IMG/VR virus record: IMGVR_UViG_648276648_000002
Origin: a virus
Lineage: Duplodnaviria > Heunggongvirae > Uroviricota > Caudoviricetes
Direction: 5' to 3' (one strand)
Length of the DNA: 30,298 nucleotides
Position numbers and translations under genes: made by a program. Below, one piece after another: positions 1,583-21,838 of the stretch (position 1 is the first letter of the stretch; the number at the start of each line of letters is the position of its first letter). Under the pieces are notes generated by a model. That model made no database searches. It was given only the letters and a program-made list of their open reading frames with translations, and had not been told where the DNA came from.

Positions 1583-2109
1583 TTGCGTAACTCCGATAAC
1601 TCGTTAAAACGTTCCATAAACATCCCGTAGGCATGGCCCGGTGCCAGTGGAATCACGTTGAACATCTCTGTTGCCGGGATGCCTTCCAGTACAGGCCAGA
1701 AAGAGCCATCATCAAGCCCGAGATCGCGGCGTTCGGTTGCCAGCATGATGAGATCGGCATATTTCACAGGCGTGCTCATAACCGGGGGTAACCCGTATTT
1801 CTCACGGATTACGGCGTCTATTTTTTCTTCCATCCGTTTATAGTCAGGAAGAAGGCGTTTCAGTGGCGCGGGGATGTCCTGACAATAAGCTTCTGTTGCA
1901 TCATGCATTAACGCTTCAAAAGCAAATTCCTGCGGTACCAGCTGGCTGCAAAGCACCGCATGTTGGGCGACGCTGTAGAAGTGTGAAAGATGTCCTGCAA
2001 AGCGACAGATATTTGAAAGGGAAACCGCGATATCGTTAATATCGATGTTGTCTTTATTTATCCTGTCATAATAAAAATGCTTCCCGGAAAAAGTTTTAAT
2101 AAATGACAT
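1573..2109 (-). CDS. yfdR: HD-domain phosphohydrolase, YfdR-like 5'-deoxynucleotidase (178 aa)
   Basis: Motifs H...HD...D (AQHAVLCS ... ALMHDATEAYCQDIP). Start moved to the internal ATG preceded by GGAG (GTGGAGAACAAAATG); size matches recalled YfdR. Confidence 0.75.
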   Translation of the reverse strand: MSFIKTFSGKHFYYDRINKDNIDINDIAVSLSNICRFAGHLSHFYSVAQHAVLCSQLVPQEFAFEALMHDATEAYCQDIPAPLKRLLPDYKRMEEKIDAVIREKYGLPPVMSTPVKYADLIMLATERRDLGLDDGSFWPVLEGIPATEMFNVIPLAPGHAYGMFMERFNELSELRKCA

Positions 2110-2237
2110 TTTGTTCTCCACGTTATATGCGCTGCACCGCGCTGAAATTTGGTTAAAGAAAAACCTCGCCATCAGGCGAATATTGAGTCAATTACGTTTC
2201 CATAAATGCCCCCGCAGGGGCATTTGCAGTAATGAAA

Positions 2238-3062
2238 TCAGGCGGTGAAAGTACCAATAAAGGTTTCTACTTTGCTGTCTTTGAACTTCTCAACAAGCAG
2301 ATCACGAAATTCGTTAGCCATTTCCTCCTGCACTGCTTCCAGCTGAATAATGCGTAGTACCAGTACAGGACGATCGCCAGTGATAATGCTGAGGCGTAAT
2401 TTAAACGGACGTTCTTTCAGACCTTCAAACGGAACGCATTTAAATTCAAATGCCACTGGCATAATGTCTTTGGTCTTCGCTTCGACAGACTCCATCAGGG
2501 AGCGTTTGCCGCTGAAGTCATTATCTTCAAAATCAGCGGTCTGGTTCGCTTCAATTGTGATTTTACGGATCGCCGCAGCCGCTTTGGTTGCCTGAATGGC
2601 GTCACCATTAGCATCAAAGCCCACAAGGTAGTCGGCCCAGTCTTCAATCCATTCTGCCAGTGACTTCTGGGAGTTACGCTCGCCGTTAACAGACAACAGG
2701 GCAGAGAACGGTGCTGTCTTTTTCAGTTTGAGAGTGGCGGTGTTATCTGCGTGACCTGGTTCATCAATAGTACCCAGGTTAAGCACACTGACGGCTCGCA
2801 TATTATCGGCATCGATAAAGCAGCGGGTGCCTTCATCTGCAAGATCTTTAGAATAACGGGTAAAGTCATCGATGCTGGCAGTGGAAAGCGCACCACGGAA
2901 ACGGAAGCGATTTAAATTAAGTTTTTCCAGATCATGAATGCGGAAATTCTCAGGCAATGCCACAGCATCGGCACCAATCTTACTGATAATTTCATTAACA
3001 CCCTGAGCAGAAATAAGGGCATGGATTTGATTAATTGCGGTTGCGTCTAAGTTCTGAGACAT
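2238..3062 (-). CDS. yfdQ: DUF2303/YfdQ-like phage protein (274 aa)
   Basis: ORF 2238-3062; size and operon position match recalled YfdQ of the yfdQRST cluster. Confidence 0.65.
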
Positions 3063-3127
3063 AATAAGTCCTCACTATATAAAGATATTCAGTGATGAGA
3101 TAAATAATCAGTTTATTAAGAACGATA

Positions 3128-3490
3128 TTAACGACCTGCTGCGCGGAGTTTTCCGTCAGGCTCACCGGCAAGAGTCAGTAATTGTCCCTGGTCTTCCTGC
3201 AGAATAGTCAGGCGACCACCGCGATTGACATACATCGGCGTTTCGGTGGTGTCTTCTTCGGAAATTTTCCCGCGGTTAGTCGGGCGAACATATGAGAGTT
3301 TGTGTTTGATTTTCACTCGGTTCTCATCAAACGGTTCGATTTCTAGGTTGAGCGAGACCTTACCTTTGGTTTTCGTGTTCATCACACCGGAAGCGACTTC
3401 ACTGAGAACTGCGCCGATTTTGGTTTCAAATACGCCGCCGTCCAGCTCCCCGATAAATGCCTGCACATCAGTACTGCGTTCGCTAGCCAT
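3128..3490 (-). CDS. Early-left operon protein, 120 aa (YfdP-like?); first gene of the leftward operon
   Basis: Internal ATG preceded by GAGGAG (GAGGAGCAGCAAAATG) within ORF 3128-3808; the upstream 106 codons of that ORF look non-coding. Confidence 0.6.
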   Translation of the reverse strand: MASERSTDVQAFIGELDGGVFETKIGAVLSEVASGVMNTKTKGKVSLNLEIEPFDENRVKIKHKLSYVRPTNRGKISEEDTTETPMYVNRGGRLTILQEDQGQLLTLAGEPDGKLRAAGR

Positions 3491-3959
3491 TTTGCTGCTC
3501 CTCATCATATCGACCCTGCAAGGTCGGTTAGTTTCTCCACAAAACAGAGAAGAACACCTGCGGTGACTGCCGCCCGGATGGATTGGGTTATGAGCCCGTC
3601 GTCCGGTGATGCTCTTCTCTGTTTTGTAAAAAGGACGGTACCAGCCGGAAGCAAGGGTACAAGCTGGTACCGCCAGGACTACACACAGCATAAAGTTGTG
3701 GTGCCGGGTGCCTCCCGGTGCCTGGCGAAGGTTGCACACCAGGCGGGTGGGTATCCACAGAAGGTCGACTGTCAGCCTCAACCTTAACCCGCGTGCGCTG
3801 AGCCGCATTCACCACAACGCTAAGGATTCTCTCTGGTTGAAAATACTTAGCTGTTATGTGCCTGCTTTTAGCCACATCAGGCGAGGTGGACCTAGTTATT
3901 CCCCAACAACAAGGATTTGGTTAATCTGGATATCCCCAACAACTAGCTGAGTATTCAAC
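3491..3959. other. GC-rich, hairpin-dense noncoding block; candidate structured RNA or leader/regulatory element
   Basis: No convincing ORF. 15-bp perfect inverted repeat ACAAAACAGAGAAGA (3539-3553) / TCTTCTCTGTTTTGT (3613-3627); a roughly 10-bp stem around GGTACCAGC / GCTGGTACC (about 3636-3671); CCGGG/CCCGG and GCCTGG/CCAGGC stems and GGTGCC repeats near 3697-3745. Confidence 0.4.
3900..3943. repeat. Direct repeat TCCCCAACAAC x2 (33-bp spacing) just upstream of the 3960 ORF; possible regulator-binding sites
   Basis: TCCCCAACAAC at 3900-3910 and 3933-3943, counted back from the ORF start at 3960. Confidence 0.4.
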
Positions 3960-4481
3960 GTGATAGCTGAACTGTCTGCGGCTATGGCCGCTATAAAGGA
4001 GACTGCCGGTCTTGCTAAGGTTATTAATGACGCGAAAACGGATGCAGAAGTTAAAGCTGCAACCATTGAACTCCAGAACAAACTAATCACGCTTCAGGCA
4101 GAATGCTTCTCTCTTGGCGATGCGATCCGCCTTCGTGATGAAGAGGTGATGCATCTCAAAGCAAAAATTGCAGAGTTTGAAGATTTTTGTGCCAAGGTAG
4201 AAGGATATGTCCTTGATCAGCTTGACTCTGGTGCTTTTGTTTACTCTAAAAATGAAATTGTGAGTGGAAAAGAAATAACTGTGCATCTGTGCCCACTTTG
4301 TTATTCCAAAAATATAAAATCGATACTTCATCCGCTTCCAGTAGGTAAAACTTCTCATTTTCTTACAAGCCGTTGCCTTCACTGTGAAAATAAATTTCTT
4401 ATGGAAAAAAATCCGATGTACGAACGACCAAGATCATTACGTGAGTTGGGGCGAGATCTGAATTCGCCTTGGATTCCTTAA
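3960..4481 (+). CDS. Uncharacterized 173-aa protein: N-terminal coiled-coil, C-terminal Cys4 zinc ribbon (CPLC...CLHC); AT-rich accessory gene in the rex-equivalent position
   Basis: Long ORF in AT-rich DNA, convergent with cI and the leftward operon, followed by a rho-independent terminator. GTG start at 3960 (first ATG at 3984); ribosome-binding site weak. Confidence 0.6.
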   Translation: MIAELSAAMAAIKETAGLAKVINDAKTDAEVKAATIELQNKLITLQAECFSLGDAIRLRDEEVMHLKAKIAEFEDFCAKVEGYVLDQLDSGAFVYSKNEIVSGKEITVHLCPLCYSKNIKSILHPLPVGKTSHFLTSRCLHCENKFLMEKNPMYERPRSLRELGRDLNSPWIP

Positions 4482-4523
4482 ATCTTGCATTGGTTGGATG
4501 ATACCCAGATTGTTAAAGAGCTA

Positions 4524-4546
4524 AGCGTCCTGTAGGGCGCTTTTTT
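4524..4546 (+). terminator. Rho-independent terminator downstream of the 3960-4481 ORF
   Basis: Hairpin AGCGTCC-TGTA-GGGCGCT followed by TTTTTT, about 43 nt after the stop codon. Confidence 0.7.
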
Positions 4547-4632
4547 GTTGCTAACGAATCATCCTGGACTTTATATGCCCCAGGCGGCTACTTCGTGGGC
4601 GTCCTGCCTGTTCGTTATCTTTGATATAAAAT

Positions 4633-4682
4633 CTAACTTAACTTAGTTATTATGGCAAGAGAAAACACCAAACTTTTCTTAG
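4633..4682. promoter_or_regulatory. Candidate left operator/promoter region (OL-like) downstream of cI
   Basis: CTAACTTAACTTAG (4633-4646) and CAAACTTTTCTTAG (4669-4682) share the CTAAC-N4-CTTAG pattern seen between cI and cro. Confidence 0.5.
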
Positions 4683-4711
4683 TTCGGTGCCTTAGTTAGA
4701 GAAGAGAGGCC

Positions 4712-5338
4712 TTAGAGTTCGTATTGAACTCCTTTGACTACACCAATGATAAGGCAATTACCATTGATAGGGATGTTGGGATACCGAGGATTTAATGGCA
4801 CTAAAAACTTTTGAGGGCCATCGATGACTAATTTTTTTACTGTAGCTTCGTTTGTTCCATCAAGTCGAGCGATGACTATTTTTCCATGACGAGGTTCTGC
4901 ATCTGGATCTACAATCACTGTTGCGCCTTCTGGTATTGTTGGGAGGCCATTAGGGTTAGTCATGGAGTCACCTTTAACCTCTAATGCAAATGAGTTATCA
5001 CCAACCTTTAATGATGTATCTACCCACTTGTCCACTTCACTAAACACTTCTGCTGCCCTGCACTCAGTAAACTGCCCAGCCTGAACCCACGATATTACAG
5101 GAACTCTGCGCATGTTTGTGACGAGTTTGCCTTCAAACTCAGCACCATAAAGAATGTAATCTATTGACGTATTGAAGAACTTCGCTAATTTCGAAAGTGC
5201 CTCCCCACCAGGGGTATTGATGTCTTTCTCCCAGTACCCCACAGCAACGTCGCTTACTCCACAAAATTTACCCAATTCTTTCTGGGACGTTCTGGTAACT
5301 CTTCTCAGAGCTTTTATACGCTGACCAACCGTTTCCAT
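4712..5338 (-). CDS. cI: CI-type prophage repressor (HTH-XRE N-domain, S24 LexA-like peptidase C-domain)
   Basis: 208 aa; HTH QKELGKFCGVSDVAVGYWE; Ala-Gly self-cleavage site (VQAGQF); GDSM serine motif; divergent from cro. Confidence 0.9.
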   Translation of the reverse strand: METVGQRIKALRRVTRTSQKELGKFCGVSDVAVGYWEKDINTPGGEALSKLAKFFNTSIDYILYGAEFEGKLVTNMRRVPVISWVQAGQFTECRAAEVFSEVDKWVDTSLKVGDNSFALEVKGDSMTNPNGLPTIPEGATVIVDPDAEPRHGKIVIARLDGTNEATVKKLVIDGPQKFLVPLNPRYPNIPINGNCLIIGVVKGVQYEL

Positions 5339-5360
5339 AGGAGCACCATTTCTTTAATTG

Positions 5361-5423
5361 CTAAGTAATCTTAGTTTTTATTGACCAAAGATAGATTTGT
5401 AATTAGCATCTAACAAAACTTAG
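5361..5423. promoter_or_regulatory. OR-like operator/promoter region between cI and cro (PR/PRM)
   Basis: Palindromic half-site pairs CTAAGTAATCTTAG (5361-5374) and CTAACAAAACTTAG (5410-5423); TTGACC (5381-5386) as a -35 candidate; GGAGG ribosome-binding site before cro. Confidence 0.6.
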
Positions 5424-5435
5424 TTTGGAGGGCGT

Positions 5436-5636
5436 ATGACAACTGACGATATCGAAAGCTACTTCGGCAGTATTGAGAAAGTTGCTGCTTTTTTCGGCAT
5501 AACAACTGAAGCCGTTTATCAGTGGCGAAACCGTCCGGGCCAGTTAATTCCAAAAGGACGTGCAGCAGAAGCTGCATATAGAACTTGCGGACGGTTGCCA
5601 TTTAAACCTGAGCTTTATGAAAAATCTAATGGATAA
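5436..5636 (+). CDS. cro: Cro-like small HTH regulator (YdaS-like)
   Basis: 66 aa, MTTDDIESYFGSIEKVAAFFGITTEAVYQWRNRPG; GGAGG ribosome-binding site; divergent from cI. Confidence 0.8.
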   Translation: MTTDDIESYFGSIEKVAAFFGITTEAVYQWRNRPGQLIPKGRAAEAAYRTCGRLPFKPELYEKSNG

Positions 5637-6231
5637 ATCGATTAACAGAAACCACAGAACGATGAGGCTAACCGTGGGTAAGCATCACTGGAAAGTAGAA
5701 AAACAGCCTGAGTGGTACGTGAAAGCTGTCAGAAAAACTATCGCAAAGTTGCCGGGTGGTTACGCTGAAGCAGCTGACTGGCTGGATGTAACAGAGAACG
5801 CATTATTTAACCGCCTTCGTGCCGATGGCGATCAGATTTTCCCGCTGGGATGGGCAATGATTTTGCAACGTGCTGGTGGAACTCACTTCATTGCTGACGC
5901 TGTGGCGCAGTCTGCAAATGGCGTCTTTGTGTCTCTTCCTGACGTCGAGGATGTGGACAACGCCGATATTAACCAGCGTCTGCTGGAAGTCATTGAACAG
6001 ATCGGCAGTTATTCAAAACAGATTCGTTCAGCAATCGAAGACGGTGTAGTGGAACCGCATGAGAAGACAGCAATTAACGACGAGCTGTATCTCTCAATTT
6101 CGAAGCTGCAGGAGCATGCAGCACTGGTCTGCAAAATCTTTTGCATTTCAGAAAGTAATGACGCCCGCGAGTGTGCAGCTCCGGGCGTCGTGGCGTCGAT
6201 TGCTTCTGGTTGTGGAGAAACTAACGCATGA
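5629..6231 (+). CDS. CII-like regulatory protein (YdaT/Phage_CP76-like); start codon uncertain
   Basis: ORF 5560-6231 in frame; candidate starts at 5617, 5629, 5662 (ATG) or 5674 (GTG after GAGG). Follows cro in the usual cro-cII order. Confidence 0.55.
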
Positions 6232-6566
6232 ACAGTTTAACAACACACTACCGTCGCTCGCAACTGATTGCGCTTCCTGTACCGGGTGGAAAAGCGAAGG
6301 TGGAATATTGCTATGCAGTGAATGTACCAGGTGACAGGGAAATTGTAACCCACAGCTTTGCAGAGTGGGCTGTGGGGGATTTCAACCGGCAGAAGGAGAC
6401 AGTCCTTTGCGACAAGTTAACCGCTGGTTCAAAGATCACTACGGAGTGCCCGTCAGAGTCATTCGTTGGGAACCGGAAACACAACGGGTTATCTACCTCC
6501 GCGAAGGCTATGAGCATGAGTGCTTCAGTCCGCTCGAACAGTTTCGTCGTAAATTCAGGGAAATAG
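6228..6566 (+). CDS. Small ORF coupled to the cII-like stop (ATGA); C-terminal half low-complexity and overlapped by a better ORF; possibly a frameshifted gene
   Basis: ORF 6228-6566; N-terminal ~60 aa protein-like, remainder Ser/Thr-rich. Confidence 0.3.
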
Positions 6567-6586
6567 AGGTCGGTCATGAGCACTAA
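6407..6586 (+). CDS. Small protein (~59 aa) coupled to the O-like gene start
   Basis: TTG start at 6407 preceded by AAGGAG (6393-6398) inside ORF 6365-6586; sequence [58 protein letters not shown]; stop overlaps the O-like start. Confidence 0.45.
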
Positions 6587-7517
6587 ATTAACCGGCTATG
6601 TATGGGATGGTTGCGCAGCGTCAGGCATGAAATTATCCAGCGTGGCAATTATGGCCCGCCTGGCTGATTTCAGTAATGACGAAGGTGTGTGCTGGCCATC
6701 GATTGAAACCATTGCCCGCCAGATTGGCGCGGGGATGAGTACCGTCAGAACGGCTATCGCACGGCTGGAAGCAGAAGGCTGGTTAACGCGTAAGGCGCGT
6801 CGCCAGGGTAACCGCAATGCGTCGAATGTTTATCAGCTTAACGTTGCGAAGCTTCAGGCAGCGGCATTTTCTCAACTGTCAGATTCTGACCCGTCAAAAT
6901 CTGACGCATCAAAATCTGACCCGTCAAAATTTGATGCGTCGAAATCTGGCAAAAAAGCGGGTTTTCACCCGTCAGAATCTGGCGGGGATCCGTCAGTAAA
7001 ATCAAAACATGATCCGTCAGATAAAAAACCTTCTCGTCCGGACTCTTCGCAACCGGACACGCAGACGGCTGAACAGGATTTTTTAACTCGCCATCCTGAT
7101 GCGGTTGTATTCAGCCCTAAAAAACGCCAGTGGGGGACGCAGGATGATTTGACCTGCGCACAGTGGCTCTGGAAAAAAATCATCGCCCTGTACGAGCAGG
7201 CTGCCGAATGTGACGGCGAGGTGGTTCGTCCCAAAGAACCGAACTGGACAGCCTGGGCAAACGAAATTCGCCTGATGTGTGTGCAGGATGGTCGTACTCA
7301 CAAACAAATCTGCGAGATTTACAGCCGCGTCAGCCGCGATCCGTTCTGGTGCCGTAACGTGCTCAGCCCGTCGAAGCTGCGGGAAAAATGGGATGAGCTT
7401 TCCCTGCGCTTATCGCCGTCCGTCAGCACGTACACAGAAAAACGCGAAGACCCGTACTTCAAAGCCAGTTACGACAATGTGGACTACAGCCAGATCCCGG
7501 CAGGATTCAGGGGGTGA
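6576..7517 (+). CDS. Replication initiator (lambda O-like, HTH N-domain) with internal iteron origin
   Basis: 313 aa; GAGG ribosome-binding site; N-terminal winged-HTH-like region; central repetitive SDSDPSKSDASKSDPSKFDASKS segment encoded by the iterons. Confidence 0.8.
   Translation: MSTKLTGYVWDGCAASGMKLSSVAIMARLADFSNDEGVCWPSIETIARQIGAGMSTVRTAIARLEAEGWLTRKARRQGNRNASNVYQLNVAKLQAAAFSQLSDSDPSKSDASKSDPSKFDASKSGKKAGFHPSESGGDPSVKSKHDPSDKKPSRPDSSQPDTQTAEQDFLTRHPDAVVFSPKKRQWGTQDDLTCAQWLWKKIIALYEQAAECDGEVVRPKEPNWTAWANEIRLMCVQDGRTHKQICEIYSRVSRDPFWCRNVLSPSKLREKWDELSLRLSPSVSTYTEKREDPYFKASYDNVDYSQIPAGFRG
6876..7025. repeat. Iteron array / candidate phage origin inside the initiator gene
   Basis: Repeated CCGTCAAAATCTGAC / GCATCAAAATCTGAC / CCGTCAGAATCTGG-type units, analogous to lambda ori within O. 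Confidence 0.65.
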
Positions 7518-8008
7518 GCATGAGTCTTTTGAATGACGTTCAGAAATTCATTGAAGCCCATCCGGGCTGTACTTCCGGAGACATTGCGGATGCTTTTGCA
7601 GGTTACTCACGGCAGCGCGTTCTGCAGTCAGCAAGCAAGTTACGTCAGAGTGGGCGTGTGGCTCACCGTTGTGAAGGAGATACACACAGACATTTCCCGC
7701 GCCTGACTGAGAGAGCGCAGGATCCGGAACCACAACCAGTTCGTGAAACCAGACCTGTGCGCAATTTCTATGTCGGCACTAACGACCCGCGGGTGATTTT
7801 GTGCCTGACCCGCCAGGCGGAAGAACTGGAGTCCAGGGGCTTATACCGTCGTGCTGCAACGGTGTGGATGGCGGCATTCCGTGAAAGCCACTCCCTGCCA
7901 GAACGAAACAATTTTCTGGCGCGTCGTGAACGGTGTTTACGGAAAAGCAGTAAGCGGGCTGCATCAGGTGAAGAGTGGTATCTCTCAGGGAATTACGTGG
8001 GGGCTTAA
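7514..8008 (+). CDS. PerC-family-like transcriptional regulator with N-terminal winged-helix-like region
   Basis: 164 aa; C-terminal segment LCLTRQAEELESRGLYRRAATVWMAAFRES...RNNFLARRERC resembles the recalled PerC/Pch family. Confidence 0.6.
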   Translation: MSMSLLNDVQKFIEAHPGCTSGDIADAFAGYSRQRVLQSASKLRQSGRVAHRCEGDTHRHFPRLTERAQDPEPQPVRETRPVRNFYVGTNDPRVILCLTRQAEELESRGLYRRAATVWMAAFRESHSLPERNNFLARRERCLRKSSKRAASGEEWYLSGNYVGA

Positions 8009-8661
8009 TGAGTAATAAATATTGCCAGGCGCTGGTGGAACTGCGGAACAAACCAGCCCATGAACTGAAGGAAGTGGGCGATCAGTGGCGCACGCCGGAC
8101 AACATTTTCTGGGGAATTAACACCCTGTTTGGCCCGTTTGTTCTGGATCTGTTCACTGACGGTGATAACGCCAAATGTGCTGCGTATTACACGGCGGAAG
8201 ACAACGCGCTGGCGCATGACTGGTCAGAACGCCTTGCGGAGCTTAAAGGTGCTGCCTTTGGTAATCCCCCATACAGCCGCGCCAGTCAGCATGAGGGGCA
8301 ATACATCACCGGCATGCGTTACATCATGAAGCATGCCAGTGCCATGCGTGATAAAGGCGGGCGCTATGTTTTCCTGATCAAAGCTGCCACCAGCGAAGTG
8401 TGGTGGCCGGAAGATGTAGATCATATTGCTTTTATTCGCGGGCGTATTGGTTTTGAACTGCCTGCCTGGTTTATCCCGAAGGATGAGAAGCAGGTGCCGA
8501 CAGGCGCTTTCTTCGCTGGTGCTATTGCTGTTTTCGACAAGACCTGGAAGGGACCGGCAATCAGCTACATCGGGCGCGATGAACTTGAGGCATGTGGTGA
8601 GGCCTTTCTGGCGCAGGTTCGCCAGCAGGCAGAAAAACTGGTCAGGGAGATGGCGGCATGA
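8008..8661 (+). CDS. Phage DNA N6-adenine methyltransferase (Dam-like)
   Basis: NPPY motif (FGNPPYS); ATG overlaps the upstream stop (TAATG) within ORF 7975-8661. Confidence 0.85.
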   Translation: MSNKYCQALVELRNKPAHELKEVGDQWRTPDNIFWGINTLFGPFVLDLFTDGDNAKCAAYYTAEDNALAHDWSERLAELKGAAFGNPPYSRASQHEGQYITGMRYIMKHASAMRDKGGRYVFLIKAATSEVWWPEDVDHIAFIRGRIGFELPAWFIPKDEKQVPTGAFFAGAIAVFDKTWKGPAISYIGRDELEACGEAFLAQVRQQAEKLVREMAA

Positions 8662-8984
8662 CGACGTTAACTCAATGCCAGCAGCAGGTGCTGGATATGC
8701 TGATTTCTTATCAGAAAGAACGTGGTTTCCCGCCAACCAATCAGGAGGTGGCAGCCATGCTGGGATACCGTTCGGTGAATGCAGCGCTGGAGCATCTTCG
8801 CGCACTGGAGAAAAAAGGCGTCATCACGATAAAGCGTGGCGTGGCCCGGGGTATCACGCTTCATACCACAGTGAAGGACGACGACAGCGAGGCAGCCGGG
8901 ATTATCCGCGCACTGCTTGCCGGTGAGGAAAACGCCAGGCTGCGTGCAACTCACTGGTTACATGAGAGGGGCCTGAAAGTATGA
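8658..8984 (+). CDS. LexA-N-terminal-like DNA-binding protein (108 aa)
   Basis: ORF 8658-8984; winged-helix-like segment QEVAAMLGYRSVNAALEHLRALEKKGVI; ATGA coupling upstream. Confidence 0.6.
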   Translation: MTTLTQCQQQVLDMLISYQKERGFPPTNQEVAAMLGYRSVNAALEHLRALEKKGVITIKRGVARGITLHTTVKDDDSEAAGIIRALLAGEENARLRATHWLHERGLKV

Positions 8985-9370
8985 AGCTTATCCTGCCTTT
9001 CCCGCCCAGCGTGAACACTTACTGGCGACACCCTAACAAAGGGGCGTTTGCAGGTAAGAGCCTGATAAGCGCGGCGGGGCGAAAATTCCAGAGCGCGGCG
9101 TGCGCAGCAATAGTTGAGCAGTTACGTCGTCTGCCGAAACCAACGTCGGCACCTGCTTCAGTGGAGATCGTGTTGTTTCCTCCGGATAACAGGATCCGCG
9201 ATCTGGACAACTATAACAAGGCGCTGTTTGACGCCCTGACCCACGCGGGGGTGTGGGAAGACGACAGTCAGGTGAAAAGAATGCTGGTGGAGTGGGGACC
9301 GGTTATCCCGGAAGGGAAGGTCGAGATCACTATCAGTAAGTACGAGAAAACGGCGGGTGCAGCTGCCTGA
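8981..9370 (+). CDS. rusA: Holliday-junction resolvase RusA
   Basis: 129 aa; RDLDNYNKALFDALTHAGVWEDDSQV matches the RusA catalytic region from memory. Confidence 0.9.
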   Translation: MKLILPFPPSVNTYWRHPNKGAFAGKSLISAAGRKFQSAACAAIVEQLRRLPKPTSAPASVEIVLFPPDNRIRDLDNYNKALFDALTHAGVWEDDSQVKRMLVEWGPVIPEGKVEITISKYEKTAGAAA

Positions 9371-9389
9371 TTAAGAGGAGAAACGAAGT

Positions 9390-10199
9390 ATGAATAATCT
9401 GATGGTCATTGATGGTATTGAAGTTCGTCGTGATGCTTATGGGCGTTACAGCCTGAACGATCTGCATCGCGCAGCAGTAGCATCTGGTGCAAATGCCAGA
9501 ACCAAGGAGCCAGGAAAGTTTCTTTCCAGCCAACAAACTGTTGAGCTTGTTCATGAATTAACCAACACCCAGAATTTGGGTGTTGACCCGGTGAGCGTGA
9601 TTCATGGGGGAAATGAACGGGGAACGTATGTCTGTAAGGAACTGGTGTATGCCTATGCAATGTGGATCAGCCCGTCATTCCATCTGAAGGTGATCCGTAC
9701 TTTCGATATGGTAACCAGCGCGCCGGAAAAGTTATCCGGACAGGCTGCTGACAAGATGCAGGCTGGCGTGATTCTGCTGGACTTTATGCGCCGGGAGTTA
9801 AATCTGTCTAACTCATCTGTGCTTGGGGCCTGTCAGAAACTCCAGGAGGCTGTTGGCTTACCGAATCTGGCACCGCGCTATGCCATTGATGCACCTGCTG
9901 ACGCGCCTGATGGCTCAAGCCGCCCGACGCTGTCGCTGAGTGCACTGCTGAAGCAGTATGGTATCCGCCTGACGGCTAATCAGGCATATCACCAGATGGC
10001 GAAGCTGGGGATCGTTGAACAACGCGAACGATACAGCCGTACCGCGATTAACAACATCAAAAAATTCTGGTCGCTGACAGCGAAAGGCTGCATGTTCGGC
10101 AAGAACATCACCAGTCCCGCAAATCCGCGCGAGACGCAGCCGCATTTCTTCGAATCCCGATTCCCTGAGCTGTTAAAGCTGCTCGATACCGTTCATTGA
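9390..10199 (+). CDS. KilA-N domain protein (antirepressor-like)
   Basis: 269 aa; N-terminal VIDGIEVRRDAYGRYSLNDLHRAA... is KilA-N-like; GAGGAG ribosome-binding site. Confidence 0.75.
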   Translation: MNNLMVIDGIEVRRDAYGRYSLNDLHRAAVASGANARTKEPGKFLSSQQTVELVHELTNTQNLGVDPVSVIHGGNERGTYVCKELVYAYAMWISPSFHLKVIRTFDMVTSAPEKLSGQAADKMQAGVILLDFMRRELNLSNSSVLGACQKLQEAVGLPNLAPRYAIDAPADAPDGSSRPTLSLSALLKQYGIRLTANQAYHQMAKLGIVEQRERYSRTAINNIKKFWSLTAKGCMFGKNITSPANPRETQPHFFESRFPELLKLLDTVH

Positions 10200-10200
10200 G

Positions 10201-11196
10201 GTGACCGTGAGAGCACTACTGACCCCTGAAATTGCCCCGCGTATGGGGATCGTATTGTTCAGGCCAGGTTCAGAGCTGATGCCCCTGTTTATGCAGGGGC
10301 GTGTCCTGCTGGAGCCTGAGCCGGAACGTTATTCATCTTTTGCCAGTGGTGCCGTTCCGGCTGCATCACAACCGCTGGCGGATGATCCTGCCGTTCGGGC
10401 CGTGTTCCGCAATGAGGCAGTGATCCGTCGTGCTGGTGGCGTGGAATGTCTTGAAAGCTGGTTACTTCGTGAAAAAGGCTGCCAGTGGCCTCATTCCGAC
10501 TGGCACAGCGAGAACATGACCACAATGCGACACGCGCCGGGCGCAATCCGTCTGTGCTGGCACTGCGATAACCAACTGCGCGATCAGTTCACGGAACGGC
10601 TGGAATCAATGGCAACGGATAACTGTGCCCGCTGGGTGTTGTCTGTTGTGCGTCGGGATCTCGGTTTTGATGACAGTCACGTTGTGACAATGCCGGAACT
10701 GTGCTGGTGGCTGATTCGTAATGATCTGGCGGATGCCTTACCGGAAAGTGCAGCCCGTAAGGCACTGAGATTACCGAAGCCTGTTGTGCCGTCTGTCACC
10801 CGGGAAAGTGACCTGGTGCCTTCGGTTCCTGCCACCAGCATCATCCAGGATAAAGCGAAAAAGGTGTTGGCGCTGAAAGTGGATCCGGAGTCGCCGGACT
10901 CTTTTATGTTACGCCCAAAACGTCGCCGCTGGGTTAATGAAAAGTACACGCGATGGGTTAAGACGCAGCCGTGCGCATGTTGTGGAAAACCTGCTGATGA
11001 TCCCCACCACCTGATAGGCCACGGTCAGGGTGGAATGGGGACAAAAGCGCATGACCTCTTTGTGTTGCCTTTGTGCAGAAAGCATCACGACGAGCTGCAT
11101 GCGGATAATGTGGCATTCGAAGAGAAGTATGGCTCCCAGCTGGAGCTGATATTTCGTTTTATCGATCGTGCGCTGGCGATTGGTGTGCTGGCCTGA
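10201..11196 (+). CDS. DUF968 (YdfU-like) protein with C-terminal Cys/His HNH-like motif
   Basis: 331 aa; C-terminal [43 protein letters not shown]. Confidence 0.7.
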
Positions 11197-11213
11197 TTTT
11201 GTGGAGAAAGTTG

Positions 11214-11597
11214 ATGCGTGATATTCAGATGGTTCTTGAGCGTTGGGGAGCGTGGGCGGCTAATAATCATGAAGATGTGACCTGGTCGTCCATTGCCGCC
11301 GGTTTTAAGGGATTAATTCCTTCAAAAGTAAAATCTCGCCCGCAATGTTGTGACGATGACGCTATGATCATTTGCGGGTGCATGGCCCGTCTGAAAAAGA
11401 ACAACAGCGATTTGCACGATTTATTAGTAGATTATTATGTAGTCGGTATGACATTCATGTCACTGGCAGGTAAGCATCGCTGCTCTGATGGTTATATCGG
11501 GAAAAGGTTACAGAAGGCTGAGGGCATAATTGAAGGGATGTTAATGGCATTAGATATCCGGTTAGAGATGGATATCGTTGTTAATAACTCTAATTAA
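11214..11597 (+). CDS. Q: Late antiterminator Q (phage 82/21-type)
   Basis: ATG at 11214 preceded by GGAGA within ORF 11199-11597; position immediately before the late/lysis region. Confidence 0.75.
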
Positions 11598-11613
11598 TAT
11601 GCCAATTGTTTAC

Positions 11614-11650
11614 TAAAAATTATTAAAAATGGGGCGTTGAGACGCCCCCA
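11614..11650 (-). terminator. Rho-independent terminator for the porin gene (minus strand)
   Basis: Minus-strand RNA: GGGGGCGUCUCAACGCCCC hairpin followed by AUUUUUAAUAAUUUUU. Confidence 0.7.
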
Positions 11651-11786
11651 AAAATAAAGGGTAATATATAACAGAAGGTTTATATAGTTAGAAGCAAGGT
11701 TGTGCTTCTAAAGGAAGTGGCTTGAGGGAGCCACTTATATGTTGGGGAGGCAACGCCTCCCGCAACATATCTTTTTCGTAATCAGA

Positions 11787-12884
11787 TTAGAACTGGTAAA
11801 CCAGACCTACAGCAACGATGTCATCAGTGCTTACACCGAGTGCTTTAGTGAAGTCATTTTTGTCAAGCAGGTTGATTTTGTAATCAACGAAAGTAGACAT
11901 ATTTTTGTTAAAGTAATAGGTTGCACCTACATCAACATATTTGACTAAGTCCTGATCGCCCCATACTCCAAGATCCTTACCTTTAGATTGCAGGTAAGCA
12001 ACGGACGGACGCAGACCGAAATCGAACTGATATTGTGCAACAGCTTCGAAGTTTTGGGCTTTATTAGCAACGAAGTGATCAGCAAATACAGTCATATTCT
12101 GGGTTTCAGAATAGGTAGTGGCCAGGTAAATGTTGTTAGCGTCATATTTCAGACCTGCGGCCCAAACTTCTGCATTTTTACCGGAAGCAAATACTTCAGG
12201 AAGAACTTTCCCTGCATTAACTTGAGTGTCGGTACGATCAGATTTCGCATAAGTTGCACCGATACCGAATCCTTCGTATTCATAGGTAGCAGAGAAACCG
12301 AAGCCATCACCGTTACCTTCAGTGTAGTTATCGAAATCGCTACGATCGTTTTTGCCTTGGTACTGAGCAGCAAAGTTCAGACCATCAACCAGACCAAAGA
12401 AGTCGTTGTTACGATAGGTTGCAACACCAGTTGCACGTTGAGTCATGAACACGTCGGTTTGAGTCCAAGTGTCACCACCGAATTCTGGCAGGACGTCAGT
12501 CCACGCACCGATGTCGTATGCTACACCGTAGTTACGGCCGTAATCGATGGAGCCGTAGTCACCGAATTTCAGGCCAGCGAAGGCAAGACGGGTTTTATCT
12601 TTGGAGGAACCTTGAGATTCAGCGCGGTTGCCTTTGAATTCATATTCCCACTGACCGAAACCAGTCAGTTGATCGTTGATTTGGGTTTCACCTTTGAAGC
12701 CAAGACGGGCATAAGTAGTATCACCATCATCTGCATCATTAGAGGAGAAGTAGTGCTTAGCATTAACTTTCCCGTACAGATCCAGCTTGTTACTGTCTTT
12801 ATTATAAATTTCAGCTGCCTGAGCAGACATCGCCATCAGTACTGATGCAGCTACAGCAGAAATTGCCACTGTTAATTTTTTCAT
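11787..12884 (-). CDS. nmpC: Outer-membrane general porin, OmpC/OmpF family (phage Lc/NmpC-type lysogenic-conversion porin); intact
   Basis: Signal peptide [23 protein letters not shown], then [16 protein letters not shown]..., ending in the C-terminal Phe typical of porins; start taken at the internal Met of ORF 11787-12944. Confidence 0.9.
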
Positions 12885-13253
12885 CGTGAGCCCTTTTTTT
12901 GAACTATTATTAAAAAATGATGTCACTGCGCGATAAATATTCATCTAATCAATGTGATTATTTCAAGATGTAAGTTTTGGTTTCTCGTTTGATTTGTGAA
13001 GTAGATCTCTATTTTTATCTGAACTTTTTTCTATCGAATCCTATTCATGGCTCTTGGCTGAATAAAAATAAATCTATTAGCCAATTTATATTAACGGCTG
13101 TTATTTATAAGCGCTCTATAATTTGAAGGTTCAATTTAAACCAGCTAAAAATAACACTGGAAATTATTTGTTGGTTATTTGTTGAGATTTGCTTATGTAT
13201 TTGTAGTGGTGTTTTCAATACTCGGTAGCATTCTCGCAAATATCATTTAGTGG

Positions 13254-13281
13254 TTTACGTACGTAAAAAATTGGTTATGCT
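13254..13281 (+). promoter_or_regulatory. Candidate late promoter (PR'-like) upstream of the lysis genes
   Basis: TTTACG - 16 bp - TATGCT; followed about 30 nt later by a terminator hairpin, as in lambdoid PR'-tR' arrangements. Confidence 0.3.
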
Positions 13282-13311
13282 GTTAAGAGTGGTTACTTCG
13301 TCACACAGCTT

Positions 13312-13336
13312 AAACCCGCCGTCGAGCGGGTTTTTC
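13312..13336 (+). terminator. Rho-independent terminator (tR'-like) between the candidate late promoter and the holin gene
   Basis: ACCCGC-CGTCGA-GCGGGT hairpin followed by TTTT, about 120 nt before the holin ATG. Confidence 0.6.
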
Positions 13337-13456
13337 CATTTTTTGAGTCTCGATATTAGCTGATAATCCAATACCTGAGTTATTCACTGACTCCGAGTCT
13401 GTTACGTTTCGTAGTATTCCCTCAATTTACACCCGCTTTGTCTGCGAGGTGGGGTT

Positions 13457-13672
13457 ATGAAATCCATGGATAAGTTAACAACGGGTGTCGCCTATGGCAC
13501 CTCAGCAGGTAGTGCCGGGTACTGGTTTTTACAGCTGCTAGATAAAGTCACGCCCTCACAGTGGGCGGCAATTGGAGTGCTGGGTAGCCTGGTATTTGGC
13601 CTGCTGACGTACCTGACAAACCTTTATTTCAAGATTAAAGAAGATAAGCGTAAGGCTGCGAGAGGTGAATAA
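13457..13672 (+). CDS. S: Holin (phage 21 S21-type pinholin)
   Basis: 71 aa, [55 protein letters not shown]... Confidence 0.9.
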
Positions 13673-14169
13673 TGTCGCCATCATTACGCAAGGCTGTAGC
13701 AGCTGCTATTGGTGGTGGGGCTGTTGCCATAGCGTCTGTGCTCATCACTGGTCCGAGTGGTGACGATGGTCTGGAAGGTGTCAGCTACATACCATATAAA
13801 GATATCGTTGGCGTATGGACTGTATGTCACGGGCATACAGGAAAAGACATCATTCCCGGTAAAACGTATACCGAAGCAGAATGCAAAGCCCTCCTGAATA
13901 AAGACCTTGCCACTGTCGCCAGACAAATTAACCCGTACATCAAAGTCGATATACCGGAAACAACGCGCGGCGCTCTTTACTCGTTCGTCTACAACGTGGG
14001 TGCTGGCAATTTCAGAATATCGACGCTTCTTCGCAAAATAAACCAGGGTGATATCAAAGGCGCATGTGATCAGCTACGTCGCTGGACATATGCTGGCGGT
14101 AAGCAATGGAAAGGTCTCATGACTCGTCGTGAGATTGAGCGTGAAATCTGTTTGTGGGGTCAGCAATGA
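13672..14169 (+). CDS. R: SAR endolysin (phage 21 R-type lysozyme)
   Basis: 165 aa; N-terminal signal-anchor-release helix ([18 protein letters not shown]); start overlaps the holin stop (TAATG). Confidence 0.9.
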
Positions 14170-14627
14170 ACAGAGTAACCGCGATTATCTCCGCTCTGGT
14201 TATCTGCATCATCGTCTGCCTGTCATGGGCTGTTAATCATTACCGTGATAACGCCATTACCTACAAAGCCCAGCGCGACAAAAATGCCAGAGAACTGAAG
14301 CTGGCGAACGCGGCAATTACTGACATGCAGATGCGCCAGCGTGATGTTGCTGCACTGGATGAAAAATACACGAAGGAGTTAGCTAATGCGAAAGCTGAAA
14401 ATGATGCTCTGCGTGATGATGTTGCCGCTGGTCGTCGTCGGTTGCACATCAAAGCAGTCTGTCAGTCAGTGCGTGAAGCCACCACCGCCTCCGGCGTGGA
14501 TAATGCAGCCTCCCCCCGACTGGCAGACACCGCTGAACGGGATTATTTCACCCTCAGAGAGAGGCTGATCACTATGCAAAAACAACTGGAAGGAACCCAG
14601 AAGTATATTAATGAGCAGTGCAGATAG
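14166..14627 (+). CDS. Rz: Spanin, inner-membrane subunit Rz
   Basis: Internal ATG of ORF 14154-14627; N-terminal transmembrane helix followed by coiled-coil. Confidence 0.9.
14386..14568 (+). CDS. Rz1: Spanin, outer-membrane lipoprotein Rz1, embedded in Rz in the +1 frame
   Basis: Lipobox LVVVGC, Pro-rich [15 protein letters not shown]; entirely inside Rz. Confidence 0.85.
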
Positions 14628-14658
14628 AGCTGCCCATATCGATGGGCAACTCATGCAA

Positions 14659-14952
14659 TTATTGTGAGCAATACACACGCGCTTCCAGCGGAGTATAAAT
14701 GCCTAAAGTAATAAAACCGAGCAATCCATTTACGAATGTTTGCTGGGTTTCTGTTTTAACAACATTTTCTGCGCCGCCACAAATTTTGGCTGCATCAACA
14801 GTTTTCTCCTGTCCAATTCCCGAAACGAAGAAGTGATGGGTGATGGTTTCCTTTGGTGTTACTGCTGTCGGTTTGTTTCCAACAGTAAACGTCTGTTGAG
14901 CACATCCTGTAATAAGCATTGCCAGAGCGGCAGAAAACAACATTTTTTTCAT
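14659..14952 (-). CDS. bor: Bor lipoprotein (serum-resistance protein)
   Basis: MKKMLFSAALAMLITGCAQQTFTV... with lipobox; start at the internal Met of ORF 14659-15000. Confidence 0.9.
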   Translation of the reverse strand: MKKMLFSAALAMLITGCAQQTFTVGNKPTAVTPKETITHHFFVSGIGQEKTVDAAKICGGAENVVKTETQQTFVNGLLGFITLGIYTPLEARVYCSQ

Positions 14953-15311
14953 CTTATTATCCTGCATTGTTAAAAACGGCAGAATCCTATGTGACAACAA
15001 TTAAACGATAGTTAAATGGATTGATGAAAATTAAAACTATATAGGTGGATGCTCAGCCTATTGGAGGAGGGGGGCACTCAGAATCCTGTGGAATGAAATA
15101 AACCGCTCTTTCTGTCCATTACCCTTTTAGCTGCGCTGTATCGTCGCCGTATTCCCGCATTAACCATGACCGTAGCCCGACGGGGAATTCCTTCTGCGTG
15201 AGTGTGCGGGAATAATCAAAAACGATGCACACCGGGTTTTACTGTGCTGACAGACGCAGGGTTACCCTCATAGTCGCTTTTCCGGTGCGATGGTGGAAGA
15301 AACCGGGATGT

Positions 15312-15506
15312 TTATTCATCATCACTTTGGATTGATGTACATGCTCTCTTTTCTGACGTTAGTCTCCGACGGCAGGCTTCAATGACCCAGGCTGAGAAAT
15401 TCCCAGACCCTTTTTGCTCAAGAGCGATGTTAATTTGTTCAATCATTTGGTTAGGAAAGCGGATGTTGCGGGTTGTTGTTCTGCGGGTTCTGTTCTTAGT
15501 TGACAT
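15312..15506 (-). CDS. YlcI-like small protein (64 aa); ribbon-helix-helix-like
   Basis: MSTKNRTRRTTTRNIRFPNQMIEQINIALEQKGSGNFSAWVIEACRRRL; position next to cos/terminase as for recalled DLP12 ylcI. Confidence 0.7.
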   Translation of the reverse strand: MSTKNRTRRTTTRNIRFPNQMIEQINIALEQKGSGNFSAWVIEACRRRLTSEKRACTSIQSDDE

Positions 15507-15649
15507 GAGGTTGCCCCGTATTCAGTGTCGCTGATTTGTATTGTCTGAAGTTGTTTTTACGTTAAGTTGATGCAGATCAATTAATACGATACCTGCGTCA
15601 TAATTGATTATTTGACGTGGTTTGATGGCGTAGATGCACGTTGTGACAT

Positions 15650-15894
15650 GTAGATGATAATTATTATCATTTTGCGGGTCCTTTCCGGCGATCCGACAGG
15701 TTACGGGGCGGCGACCTCGCGGGTTTTTGCTATTTATGAAAATTTTCCGGTTTAAGGTGTTTCCGTTCTTCTTCGTCGTAACTTAATGTTTTTATTTAAA
15801 ATAACCCCTGAAAAGAAAGGAAACGACAGGTGCTGAAAACGAACTTTTGGGCCTTTGTCGTTTCCTTTCTCTGTTTTTGGCCGTGGAATGAACA
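15650..15894 (+). promoter_or_regulatory. cos: cos region (cosQ/cosN/cosB) with inverted Nu1-binding R elements
   Basis: Lambda-like GGGCGGCGACCT at 15706-15717; inverted repeats GAAAGGAAACGACAGG / CCTTTGTCGTTTCCTTTC upstream of Nu1. Confidence 0.85.
15706..15717 (+). other. cosN: cosN 12-nt cohesive-end sequence
   Basis: GGGCGGCGACCT, 189 nt upstream of the Nu1 ATG. Confidence 0.85.
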
Positions 15895-16414
15895 ATGGAA
15901 GTCAACAAAAAGCAGCTGGCTGACATTTTCGGTGCGAGTATCCGTACCATTCAGAACTGGCAGGAACAGGGAATGCCCGTTCTGCGAGGCGGTGGCAAGG
16001 GTAATGAGGTGCTTTATGACTCTGCCGCCGTCATAAAATGGTATGCCGAAAGGGATGCTGAAATTGAGAACGAAAAGCTGCGCCGGGAGGTTGAAGAACT
16101 GCGGCAGGCCAGCGAGGCAGATCTCCAGCTAGGGACTATTGAGTACGAACGCCATCGACTTACGCGTGCGCAGGCCGACGCACAGGAACTGAAGAATGCC
16201 AGAGACTCCGCTGAAGTGGTGGAAACCGCATTCTGTACTTTCGTATTGTCGCGGATCGCAGGTGAAATTGCCAGTATTCTCGACGGGCTCCCCCTGTCGG
16301 TGCAGCGGCGTTTTCCGGAACTGGAAAACCGACATGTTGATTTCCTGAAACGGGATATCATCAAAGCCATGAACAAAGCAGCCGCGCTGGATGAACTGAT
16401 ACCGGGGTTGCTGA

Positions 16415-16440
<26 letters not shown>
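15895..16440 (+). CDS. nu1: Terminase small subunit Nu1
   Basis: 181 aa, MEVNKKQLADIFGASIRTIQNWQEQGMPVLRGGGKGNEVLYDSAAVIKWYAERD...; lambda Nu1 from memory. Confidence 0.95.
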
Positions 16441-20121
<3,681 letters not shown>

Positions 20122-20141
<20 letters not shown>

Positions 20142-21441: not shown

Positions 21442-21450
21442 GGGATGTTT

Positions 21451-21783: not shown

Positions 21784-21838
21784 CCTGACCCTTCATCACT
21801 AAAGGCCGCCTGTGCGGCTTTTTTTACGGGATTTTTTT

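Follow-up and report, generated by a model that had tools for sequence, protein, structure and literature searches.

The KilA-N gene and the DUF968 (YdfU-family) gene that lie between rusA and the antiterminator gene Q of a lambdoid E. coli prophage, found at the argU/DLP12 site, are genome neighbours and not a dedicated two-part system. We analysed the window, which is the whole stretch of 30,298 nt, and established for the DUF968 protein how its domains are arranged, which fold class it belongs to, which residues are conserved and what genes surround it. Our preferred reading, to which we assign a probability of roughly 0.55, is that these are two separate delayed-early ('nin-region') genes, the first encoding a KilA-N DNA binder or regulator and the second a metal-dependent DNA nickase.

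Gene order between rusA and Q

As initially described, both ORFs are present on the + strand between rusA and Q. The two genes and their landmarks are as follows.

4712-5338: repressor, 4 kb from the KilA-N gene
8981..9370, + strand: rusA, Holliday-junction resolvase (Pfam RusA, E = 6e-15), the upstream neighbour
9390..10199, + strand: KilA-N protein gene, 269 aa, from the ORF list (ATG at 9390; RBS AAGAGGAG at 9373-9380)
10207..11196, + strand: DUF968/YdfU-family gene, 329 aa (GTG start at 10207)
11214..11597, + strand: antiterminator Q gene of the QuuD type (Pfam Phage_antitermQ, E = 5.7e-54; RefSeq name quuD), the immediate downstream neighbour
15895 (start): terminase small subunit, of a lambda Nu1/A-type terminase

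The genes form a rightward and tightly packed operon in the order dam, lexA-DBD, rusA, kilA-N, DUF968 and Q. The terminase genes lie 4.7 kb beyond the DUF968 gene, with Q, a porin gene and the lysis cassette in between. The initial annotation used a DUF968 ORF of 331 aa (10201-11196). Translation almost certainly begins instead at the GTG at 10207, which we prefer because it is used by RefSeq and most homologues and has a GAGG 5 nt upstream. This GAGG overlaps the KilA-N stop codon, suggesting that the two genes are translationally coupled. The Q gene starts at the ATG at 11214, not at 11199.

Scans of the region gave no convincing internal signals, with 4 promoter-like sites compared to 7.0 expected by chance and 9 terminator-like sites compared to 5.2 expected, which is near chance. 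Rfam found no RNA families within 7500-14000, and the repeat search returned only short, chance-level repeats, Chi sites aside.

We then used a 14-sequence DUF968 alignment to build a survey of loci. DUF968 lies directly before Q in nearly all of the 80 loci, across at least four Q families, and rusA is found within about 2 kb upstream of it in most of them. Published neighbourhood and fusion data also tie DUF968 to RusA, Erf and Rad52 (PMC5714182, PMC4118853). Separately, the protein database holds RusA-KilA-N and KilA-N-DUF968 'fusion' proteins; we dismissed these as frameshift or gene-calling artefacts because each is represented by one or few entries and the window encodes the genes in different frames. 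Both genes are common: among 5426 complete E. coli genomes, a near-full-length KilA-N gene is present in 2114 and a near-complete copy of the DUF968 allele in 2363 (about 40% each).

Domains and proposed function of the DUF968 protein

The DUF968 protein appears to consist of an N-terminal zinc domain, a variable linker, disordered in part, with the basic motif RPKRRRW at its end, and a C-terminal HNH nuclease domain. Its features are located as follows.

10378..10686, + strand: core of the unannotated N-terminal domain (residues 58-160), with three helices, a beta-hairpin and then helices
10480-10566, + strand: putative structural zinc site, C92-x7-[C/H]100-x16-C117-x2-[H/C]120
10912..11193, + strand: C-terminal His-Me (HNH) finger domain (residues 236-329), beginning with the basic motif RPKRRRW
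10972-11100, + strand: Cys/His cluster C256 to H298, flagged in the initial annotation

The protein matches Pfam DUF968 (PF06147) with 269.9 bits (cut-off 27.8) over residues 162-328 of the 331-aa ORF. The whole protein scores 26.6 bits against HNHc_6 (PF16784), exactly at the cut-off, in a match covering only positions 123-184 of the 204-position profile, and its C-terminal fragment scores 29.6 bits. PHROGs labels the family 'HNH endonuclease', and DUF968 was classed as a His-Me (HNH) finger in 2017 (PMC5714182). NCBIfam gave no matches for either of the two proteins, and a sequence search of PDB chains with both returned nothing significant. The predicted structure is of moderate quality (mean pLDDT 67; residues 1-55, 197-245 and 274-283 are poor), but its C-terminal domain (pLDDT 80-91) matches Ref, Cap5, IscB, YbcO, McrA and Gme HNH. 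The model thus predicts a beta-beta-alpha-metal His-Me finger fold, probably a zinc-knuckle domain of the YbcO/HNHc_6/Ref branch.

We scored conservation over 30 diverse homologues at 25-50% identity. The catalytic-type residues, which fit the His-Me pattern of a catalytic His closing strand 1 plus polar metal ligands on the helix, are retained in most of them (H267 in 26/30, H268 in 27/30, D283 in 30/30, H294 in 26/30 and H298 in 26/30), as are the zinc-knuckle ligands of the CxxC...Cxx[C/H] pattern (C256 in 30/30, C259 in 23/30, C290 in 25/30 and [H/C]293 in 23/30). The HH pair is absent from 3 of the 30, and individual knuckle ligands are absent from 5 to 7 (C259 from 7, C290 from 5 and position 293 from 7), the second and third knuckle Cys being missing together in most homologues that lack knuckle ligands. 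Since some homologues lack the HH pair or knuckle ligands, catalysis may not be family-wide. The 43-residue C-terminal string quoted in the initial annotation is found in the ORF translation, and the HNH-like Cys/His cluster that the annotation proposed is real, the HNH assignment having already been published (PMC5714182). The cluster is kept among homologues down to 25-50% identity and therefore passes the test of conservation that the annotation itself had set.

Newly described here is another Cys/His site, conserved more strictly than the first, in the unannotated N-terminal 160 residues. Of the 30 diverse homologues, 29, 30, 30 and 30 have Cys or His at its four successive ligand positions, where C and H interchange. 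Pfam has no match for residues 1-162, and the model is folded over residues 60-195 (pLDDT 72-92). The idea that this domain is a degenerate copy of the protein's own C-terminal HNH domain met with weak signals: comparison of the two gave a non-significant hhalign probability of 3%, and an 8-column match between its LCWHHDN and the LCRWHHQ of Ref had a probability of 15%. A NinB/Orf-like N-domain, an idea that came from Curtis 2014 (for Gram-positive DUF968) and from the Gp16 paper (PMC12817073), was rejected for this protein because neither its N-terminal nor its middle segment aligned to lambda NinB by hhalign with a probability above 0.4%.

The HNH domain connects the protein to two characterized nucleases. 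[quoted passage not shown] A profile-profile comparison matches it to the DUF968 protein (E = 1.8e-5), although sequence identity is low and the C-terminal 107 residues score below the cut-off of the Ref Pfam model (18.3 versus 26.9 bits, E = 0.0026). H294 aligns with H134 of Ref, and the Ref variant H134/153A has reduced activity (PMC4713147). The second is Gp16 of Staphylococcus phage PhiNM1 (HNHc_6, PF16784), whose HNH domain is homologous (hhalign probability 94.9%, E = 4.8e-8) and which was experimentally shown to be a nickase that binds RecA (NAR 2026, PMC12817073).

We infer a nuclease activity, its substrate and a RecA link for the DUF968 protein as follows. It would act during lytic growth, alongside RusA, as a metal-dependent nickase on branched or RecA-bound recombination or replication intermediates. 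It would thereby fill the role of Rap/NinG in lambda, which is a His-Me finger protein. By analogy to P1 Ref and PhiNM1 Gp16, host RecA may stimulate it. A recombination or replication accessory was among the roles initially suggested for these genes, and it is the best-supported of them. The same annotation called the proteins poorly characterised, which is fair: our literature search found no experimental paper on, and no measured activity for, any enterobacterial YdfU/DUF968 protein.

The DUF968 gene itself carries a cluster of Chi sites.

10432..10439, + strand: Chi site GCTGGTGG, encoded by a conserved A-G-G peptide
10703..10710, + strand: Chi site encoded by a conserved C-W-W (TGC TGG TGG), the right-most + strand Chi in the window
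10832..10839, - strand: third intragenic Chi site, oriented oppositely

We observed, for the first time here, that this cluster is maintained through synonymous codon choice. Across 80 homologous genes, GCTGGTGG is the coding sequence for 43 of 87 A-G-G peptides, and the Cys codon of C-W-W motifs is TGC in 72 of 75 cases, compared to 481 of 665 other Cys codons in the same genes. A scan of ten early-region ORFs (308-7514) detected no Red, Erf, RecT or Gam. A bolder version of our proposal, which is tentative and in its full form unlikely, is that YdfU-family proteins are nickases directed to D-loops or RecA filaments, with the N-terminal Cys/His domain recognising RecA or DNA structure. Together with RusA and the Chi cluster in their own gene, they would make up a minimal recombination or replication-restart module that depends on host RecA and RecBCD and replaces Red/Gam in many enterobacterial lambdoid phages.

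Among the alternatives, the one that survives best, though we consider it unlikely, argues by analogy that the DUF968 protein is a host-takeover or toxicity nuclease. It would damage or condense host DNA, halt host replication and push the cell to lysis, as reported for PhiNM1 Gp16 and P1 Ref, and its main role would not be the processing of phage recombination intermediates. The protein belongs to the same His-Me finger branch as Gp16 and Ref, both of which are toxic if produced on their own and boost lytic growth (PMC12817073, PMC4713147), and its gene is located in a delayed-early operon. Yet the gene is tied to rusA and not to early host-shutoff genes. Moreover, the gene is intact in cryptic prophages such as Qin, which is awkward for a highly toxic protein unless its expression is kept under tight repression; its survival in Qin also counts against our preferred reading, as it could point to a host-level rather than a lytic role.

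It is quite unlikely that the DUF968 protein is instead a zinc-finger protein with no catalytic activity but a DNA-binding or regulatory role in Q expression or late transcription. Such a protein would account for the position of its gene directly before Q, of whichever family, and the two zinc-type clusters, the loss of the HH pair in some family members and the annotation of one member as 'phage transcriptional regulator' (PMC5714182) are consistent with it. However, the catalytic-type residues are present in about 87-100% of the diverse homologues, and the closest structures are active nucleases.

The KilA-N protein and the interchangeable upstream slot

The KilA-N protein is predicted to be a two-domain DNA-binding protein.

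9408..9716, + strand: KilA-N DNA-binding domain (residues 7-109)
9927..10196, + strand: C-terminal domain (residues 180-269), with no family assignment

Its N-terminal domain matches Pfam KilA-N (PF04383) with 79.2 bits (cut-off 23.8, residues 7-109) and has the APSES/KilA-N fold. The 'transcriptional regulator' family phrog_129 matches the full length of the protein, a BFVD fold search returned KilA-N-type proteins only, and the RefSeq entry is WP_001061444.1 ('KilA-N domain-containing protein', strain YJ6). The C-terminal domain is better conserved than the N-terminal one and includes an invariant NITSP.NPRETQPHFFES stretch; compared to ANT/KilAC, it gave no signal in three profile comparisons. 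The protein is most likely a site-specific DNA binder or a regulator in lytic growth.

The gene upstream of DUF968 varies. Among 78 loci from different Enterobacterales, this slot holds a Rha+ANT gene in 32, a KilA-N gene in 12 and an ORF6N gene in 7, while rusA directly abuts DUF968 in about 9. The KilA-N protein would thus occupy a place that Rha+ANT or ORF6N proteins take in related phages. We found no co-variation between the DUF968 N-terminus and the class of the upstream gene. That DUF968 is fixed before Q whatever the Q family, while the slot upstream is interchangeable, is an observation new to this work, and this interchangeability shows that KilA-N and DUF968 are not a dedicated pair.

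These data bear on a two-gene system, in which the KilA-N protein would direct the nuclease to its target or control it, for instance within a module for defence or inter-phage conflict. The genes are adjacent and probably translationally coupled, each is carried by about 40% of the complete E. coli genomes, a Bro/KilA/Rha/ORF6N-class gene of some kind lies upstream of DUF968 in 51 of the 78 loci, and BstA, a prophage protein of abortive infection, offers a precedent with its KilA-N-like domain (PMC8585504). We nevertheless judge such a system improbable, as KilA-N itself is upstream in so few loci and the DUF968 N-terminus does not follow the class of its neighbour, while BstA adjoins a repressor gene outside the nin region. 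The functional unit of KilA-N protein and nuclease that was initially envisaged is not supported on these counts. The inter-phage conflict idea has no direct support, since neither protein is a known defence family in PADLOC: the DUF968 protein has no match there and the KilA-N protein only a weak partial match to the candidate PDC-S22 (E = 1.6e-5).

Finally, phage HNH genes often encode homing endonucleases or proteins that partner terminase (PMC12817073) and the DUF968 gene sits at a mosaic junction where partners vary on both sides, but a selfish homing-type endonuclease or a packaging HNH protein assisting terminase is very improbable, as homing genes are typically sporadic whereas this position is fixed in almost every locus examined, the terminase genes are of the lambda Nu1/A type and 4.7 kb away and not adjacent as for HK97 gp74, and the Ref branch is reported to have no homology to terminase-associated HNH proteins (PMC4330346).

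Significance and comparison with known systems

Both genes were already catalogued and are very common, and the HNH assignment was already published. The practical value of our analysis is mainly a negative one: KilA-N and DUF968 do not make up a new system and are best handled as two unconnected genes. Few E. coli prophage proteins annotated without a function are as widespread as YdfU/DUF968, and K-12 carries a paralogue. Its ties to Ref and to Gp16, which was characterised only recently, provide a concrete and cheaply testable biochemical hypothesis. If it is true, a 'y-gene' gains a function, and insight is gained into recombination in lambdoid phages without Red/Gam.

The KilA-N protein is of the same class as Roi (HK022, Stx phages) and the shuffled family that combines Bro-N, KilA-N, Rha or ORF6N modules with ANT. 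Like this group, its gene has a late nin-region position, immediately ahead of Q or of the final nin gene, and it joins an N-terminal DNA-binding module to a different C-terminal module. Unlike them, its N-module is KilA-N and not Bro-N or Rha, and its C-domain has no detectable similarity to ANT/KilAC. Like BstA, it is prophage-encoded and two-domained with a KilA-N-type N-terminus (PMC8585504). However, the bstA gene adjoins the repressor gene and is expressed in lysogens, whereas the KilA-N gene here is in the rightward lytic nin operon, and PADLOC returned no BstA match for its product.

A full-length homologue of the DUF968 protein is K-12 YdfU of the Qin prophage (Pfam DUF968, PF06147; His-Me finger group 7, Jablonska et al. 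2017), which is 57% identical over the full length and about 93% identical over the last 110 residues. The two proteins share the same three-part architecture, and both genes are directly upstream of a Q gene. YdfU is a different allele, divergent in its N-terminal and middle regions, and in Qin the genes upstream of ydfU have been lost (rem, hokD and relBE follow). YbcO of DLP12 (PDB 3G27, DUF1364) is a small, single-domain protein with an 81-residue chain that lacks the N-terminal zinc domain and the linker.

Ref has a disordered, basic N-terminus of 76 residues that is involved in its RecA dependence. The DUF968 protein has instead a folded 160-residue Cys/His domain and a linker, its basic segment being limited to the short RPKRRRW before the HNH domain. 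Gp16 has a NinB/Orf-like N-domain that the DUF968 protein lacks, its gene adjoins ssb and replication genes rather than Q, and the hosts of the two are only distantly related. The two proteins nevertheless both carry a CxxC...CxxH zinc knuckle, and both genes belong to early or delayed-early blocks for DNA metabolism in which rusA is also found.

Operon setting of the KilA-N and DUF968 genes

The window is a lambda-like prophage, and the equivalent gene arrangement in strain YJ6 adjoins a tRNA-Arg gene and intD (the DLP12 site). The initial annotation had picked out a KilA-N gene followed by a DUF968 gene and quoted a C-terminal peptide of the latter; the pair and the peptide are present, Pfam confirms both families, and both reported reading frames are real, with one start misplaced by 6 nt. 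The start codons were verified against the sequence, and DUF968 begins with the GTG at 10207, as in RefSeq and most homologues, preceded by a GAGG ribosome binding site that overlaps the KilA-N stop codon. The rightward operon is tightly packed from dam through Q, and past Q come an opposite-strand porin gene and then the lysis genes.

Genes of the prophage discussed here
4712-5338, S24 repressor of the early region (Pfam)
7975-8661, +, Dam methylase
8658-8984, +, LexA-DNA-binding-domain-only protein, 108 aa (Pfam LexA_DNA_bind, residues 1-65, E 2.5e-19)
8981-9370, +, RusA
9390-10199, +, KilA-N protein (Pfam KilA-N, 79 bits)
10207-11196, +, DUF968 protein (Pfam DUF968, 270 bits)
11214-11597, +, Q, QuuD type
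11787-12944, -, OmpC/NmpC-like porin gene (named ompC by RefSeq in strain YJ6)

The porin gene region between Q and the lysis cassette is low in GC (about 0.42-0.44), and the porin gene appears to match the lysogenic-conversion porin known from DLP12 and from PA-2-type phages. Directly 5′ of rusA, the LexA-DNA-binding-domain-only protein has no S24 cleavage domain, and such a gene again precedes rusA in 40 of 80 related loci; judged by its domain content, it might be an uncleavable LexA-box binder in a lytic operon, re-repressing SOS genes. Ten early-region ORFs (308-7514) scanned by Pfam include YfdQ (DUF2303), a YfdR-like HD protein, DUF551, a CII-like protein and an HTH_36 protein; among these ten, Pfam recognised neither a recombination gene of the Red, Erf, RecT or Gam kind nor a DnaB/DnaC-type replication protein or P-type gene.

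We classified the neighbouring genes at 80 DUF968 loci, which come from a range of Enterobacterales species. An antiterminator Q gene lies downstream in nearly every locus. By sequence these Q genes form five clusters, and Q-type Pfam models recognise four of them (Phage_antitermQ, Antiterm, Phage_antiter_Q, and DUF1133, the last cluster also giving a weaker Phage_antitermQ match). In most loci rusA is found no more than about 2 kb upstream.

Gene class upstream of DUF968, counted among 78 loci
Rha+ANT, 32 loci
KilA-N type as in the window, 12 loci
rusA directly, about 9 loci
ORF6N with a weak ANT match, 7 loci
92-aa ORF, 5 loci
624-aa ORF resembling a cytosine methylase (putative), 4 loci

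Because Q is nearly constant downstream while the upstream gene varies, DUF968 is the fixed 'last nin gene before Q', and the slot ahead of it takes any of several interchangeable Bro/KilA/Rha/ORF6N-class cassettes, the KilA-N gene among them; Roi holds a similar place in Stx phages (PMC3430580). In 51 of 78 loci the gene between rusA and DUF968 encodes a two-domain DNA-binding protein (Rha+ANT, KilA-N or ORF6N); these proteins are not homologous to each other, and their recurrence suggests that some protein of the Rha/KilA-N/ORF6N class is needed there.

Domains of the DUF968 protein

Profile comparison matched the C-terminal domain of DUF968 to Ref, the RecA-dependent HNH endonuclease of phage P1 (E 1.8e-5), and to Gp16, the RecA-interacting nickase of Staphylococcus phage ΦNM1 and a Pfam HNHc_6 protein (probability 94.9%, E 4.8e-8); the Ref Pfam model scored below threshold on the DUF968 protein. 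Cleavage by Ref is confined to DNA bound by RecA, and during SOS the enzyme enhances the lytic cycle of P1 (PMC4713147, PMC4330346). Gp16, described in 2026, is a RecA-binding nickase; it inhibits the growth of the host and favours replication of the phage (PMC12817073).

The C-terminal Cys/His cluster flagged by the initial annotation, whose conservation it had named as a refutation test, is conserved in 30 full-length homologues of 25-50% identity drawn from an exhaustive representative search, and the nuclease-fold reading therefore stands. The putative catalytic or metal-binding residues are H267 (26/30), H268 (27/30), D283 (30/30), H294 (26/30) and H298 (26/30), and the zinc-knuckle ligands are C256 (30/30), C259 (23/30), C290 (25/30) and [H/C]293 (23/30). 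Homologues without a knuckle ligand (5 to 7 of 30) have mostly lost the second and third Cys together while keeping the HH pair, which is lost in three others.

Residues 1-162 match no Pfam family, and their predicted structure runs from three helices through a β-hairpin into further helices. They contain a second Cys/His cluster, C-x7-[C/H]-x16-C-x2-[H/C] (10480-10566, +; residues 92-120), whose positions C92, [C/H]100, C117 and [H/C]120 are Cys or His, with interchange, in 29-30 of the 30 homologues and fall within a conserved LCWH[H/C]DN motif. Kept more strictly than the C-terminal cluster, it has the sequence pattern expected of a structural zinc site. The N-domain resembles the protein's own HNH domain and the LCRWHH motif of Ref only faintly and not significantly, and the His closing its first strand is not conserved among the 30 homologues; should the domain descend from an HNH finger, it probably has no activity.

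Alleles and Chi sites

Both genes are real, and public databases already list them under families whose function is unknown, where they are labelled 'KilA-N domain-containing protein' and 'DUF968 domain-containing protein' by RefSeq and 'transcriptional regulator' and 'HNH endonuclease', respectively, by PHROGs. The nuclease fold of DUF968, a His-Me (HNH) finger, was published in 2017, and Jablonska et al. (PMC5714182) give RusA, Q and antirepressor genes as its neighbours. The additions here are modest, namely the relation to Ref and Gp16, a second zinc site and the cluster of Chi sites, and they make the function of DUF968 testable.

Both genes are widespread. The 2.8-kb block is matched by 121 phage records, among them cdtI, mEp460, SfII, Ayreon and several Stx phages. 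Of 5426 complete E. coli genomes, 2363 carry the DUF968 allele and 2114 the KilA-N gene, each with at least 80% coverage; copies in strain LH50-c are 100% identical. YdfU of the K-12 Qin prophage shares 57% identity with the DUF968 protein. A common E. coli allele (ST131 included; hits P0030, P0042, P0050 and P0066) is strongly diverged from the window protein over its first ~118 residues and near-identical from about residue 120 onward, a pattern that points to a putative recombination junction within the gene, close to the zinc site of the N-domain.

The window carries eight Chi sites (GCTGGTGG; 1407+, 5872+, 8031+, 8387-, 9283+, 10432+, 10703+ and 10832-) against a chance expectation of 1.09 for its whole length. 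All lie left of 10840, in the early half of the prophage, with none in 10840-30298, and three fall inside the DUF968 gene; across the 80 loci, Chi density is 2.4 per kb in this gene versus 0.64 per kb in the flanks. Two of the sites in the gene are encoded by the conserved peptides C-W-W and A-G-G. In counts taken from related sequences rather than independent events, C-W-W uses TGC in 72 of 75 cases, compared with 72% TGC elsewhere in the same genes, and A-G-G is spelt GCTGGTGG in 43 of 87. Synonymous codon choice at both peptides favours Chi, and synonymous sites should be well mixed at 50-70% protein identity. In terms of lambda biology, a RecBCD that entered at the right end of a cos cut and moved leftward would find the first correctly oriented Chi within the DUF968 gene. 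This position fits a RecA/RecBCD-linked role without proving one.

Proposed role and known systems

What the analysis shows is the architecture, the fold class, the conserved residues and the place in the operon beside rusA and Q. From them we infer, with a probability of roughly 0.55, that the DUF968 protein would be a metal-dependent nickase that acts during the lytic cycle on DNA that is branched or bound by RecA. The role would parallel that of lambda Rap/NinG, also a His-Me finger protein (group 24, PMC5714182), and the lack of Pfam-recognised Red, Erf, RecT and Gam genes among the ten ORFs scanned in 308-7514 is supporting context. RecA could stimulate the protein as it does Ref and Gp16; RecA dependence specifically is improbable.

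Host-takeover toxicity is one less likely alternative, to be read beside both the growth inhibition by Gp16 and its promotion of phage replication. A true two-gene system, the functional unit originally proposed, would accord with the frequent co-travel of the KilA-N and DUF968 genes within E. coli. This is linkage, not evidence of a system: the KilA-N type is upstream in 12 of 78 loci, its slot is interchangeable, and DUF968 N-terminal divergence does not follow the upstream gene class. The two genes are functionally separate. A suggested defence role also fails to find backing in PADLOC, where DUF968 matches no defence family and the KilA-N protein gives only a weak, partial match to candidate PDC-S22. 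A homing or packaging HNH enzyme is a further, unlikely alternative, given the fixed place before Q. An inert regulatory zinc-finger protein is likewise unlikely; it would account for the two Cys/His clusters, and the conservation of the catalytic-type residues speaks against it.

Compared with known systems, BstA, a KilA-N-like defence protein, is encoded beside a repressor gene. A NinB/Orf-like N-domain was ruled out for DUF968 (hhalign 0.4% or less); in this the DUF968 protein differs from Gp16 and likewise from the Gram-positive proteins of Curtis et al. 2014 (PMC4118853).
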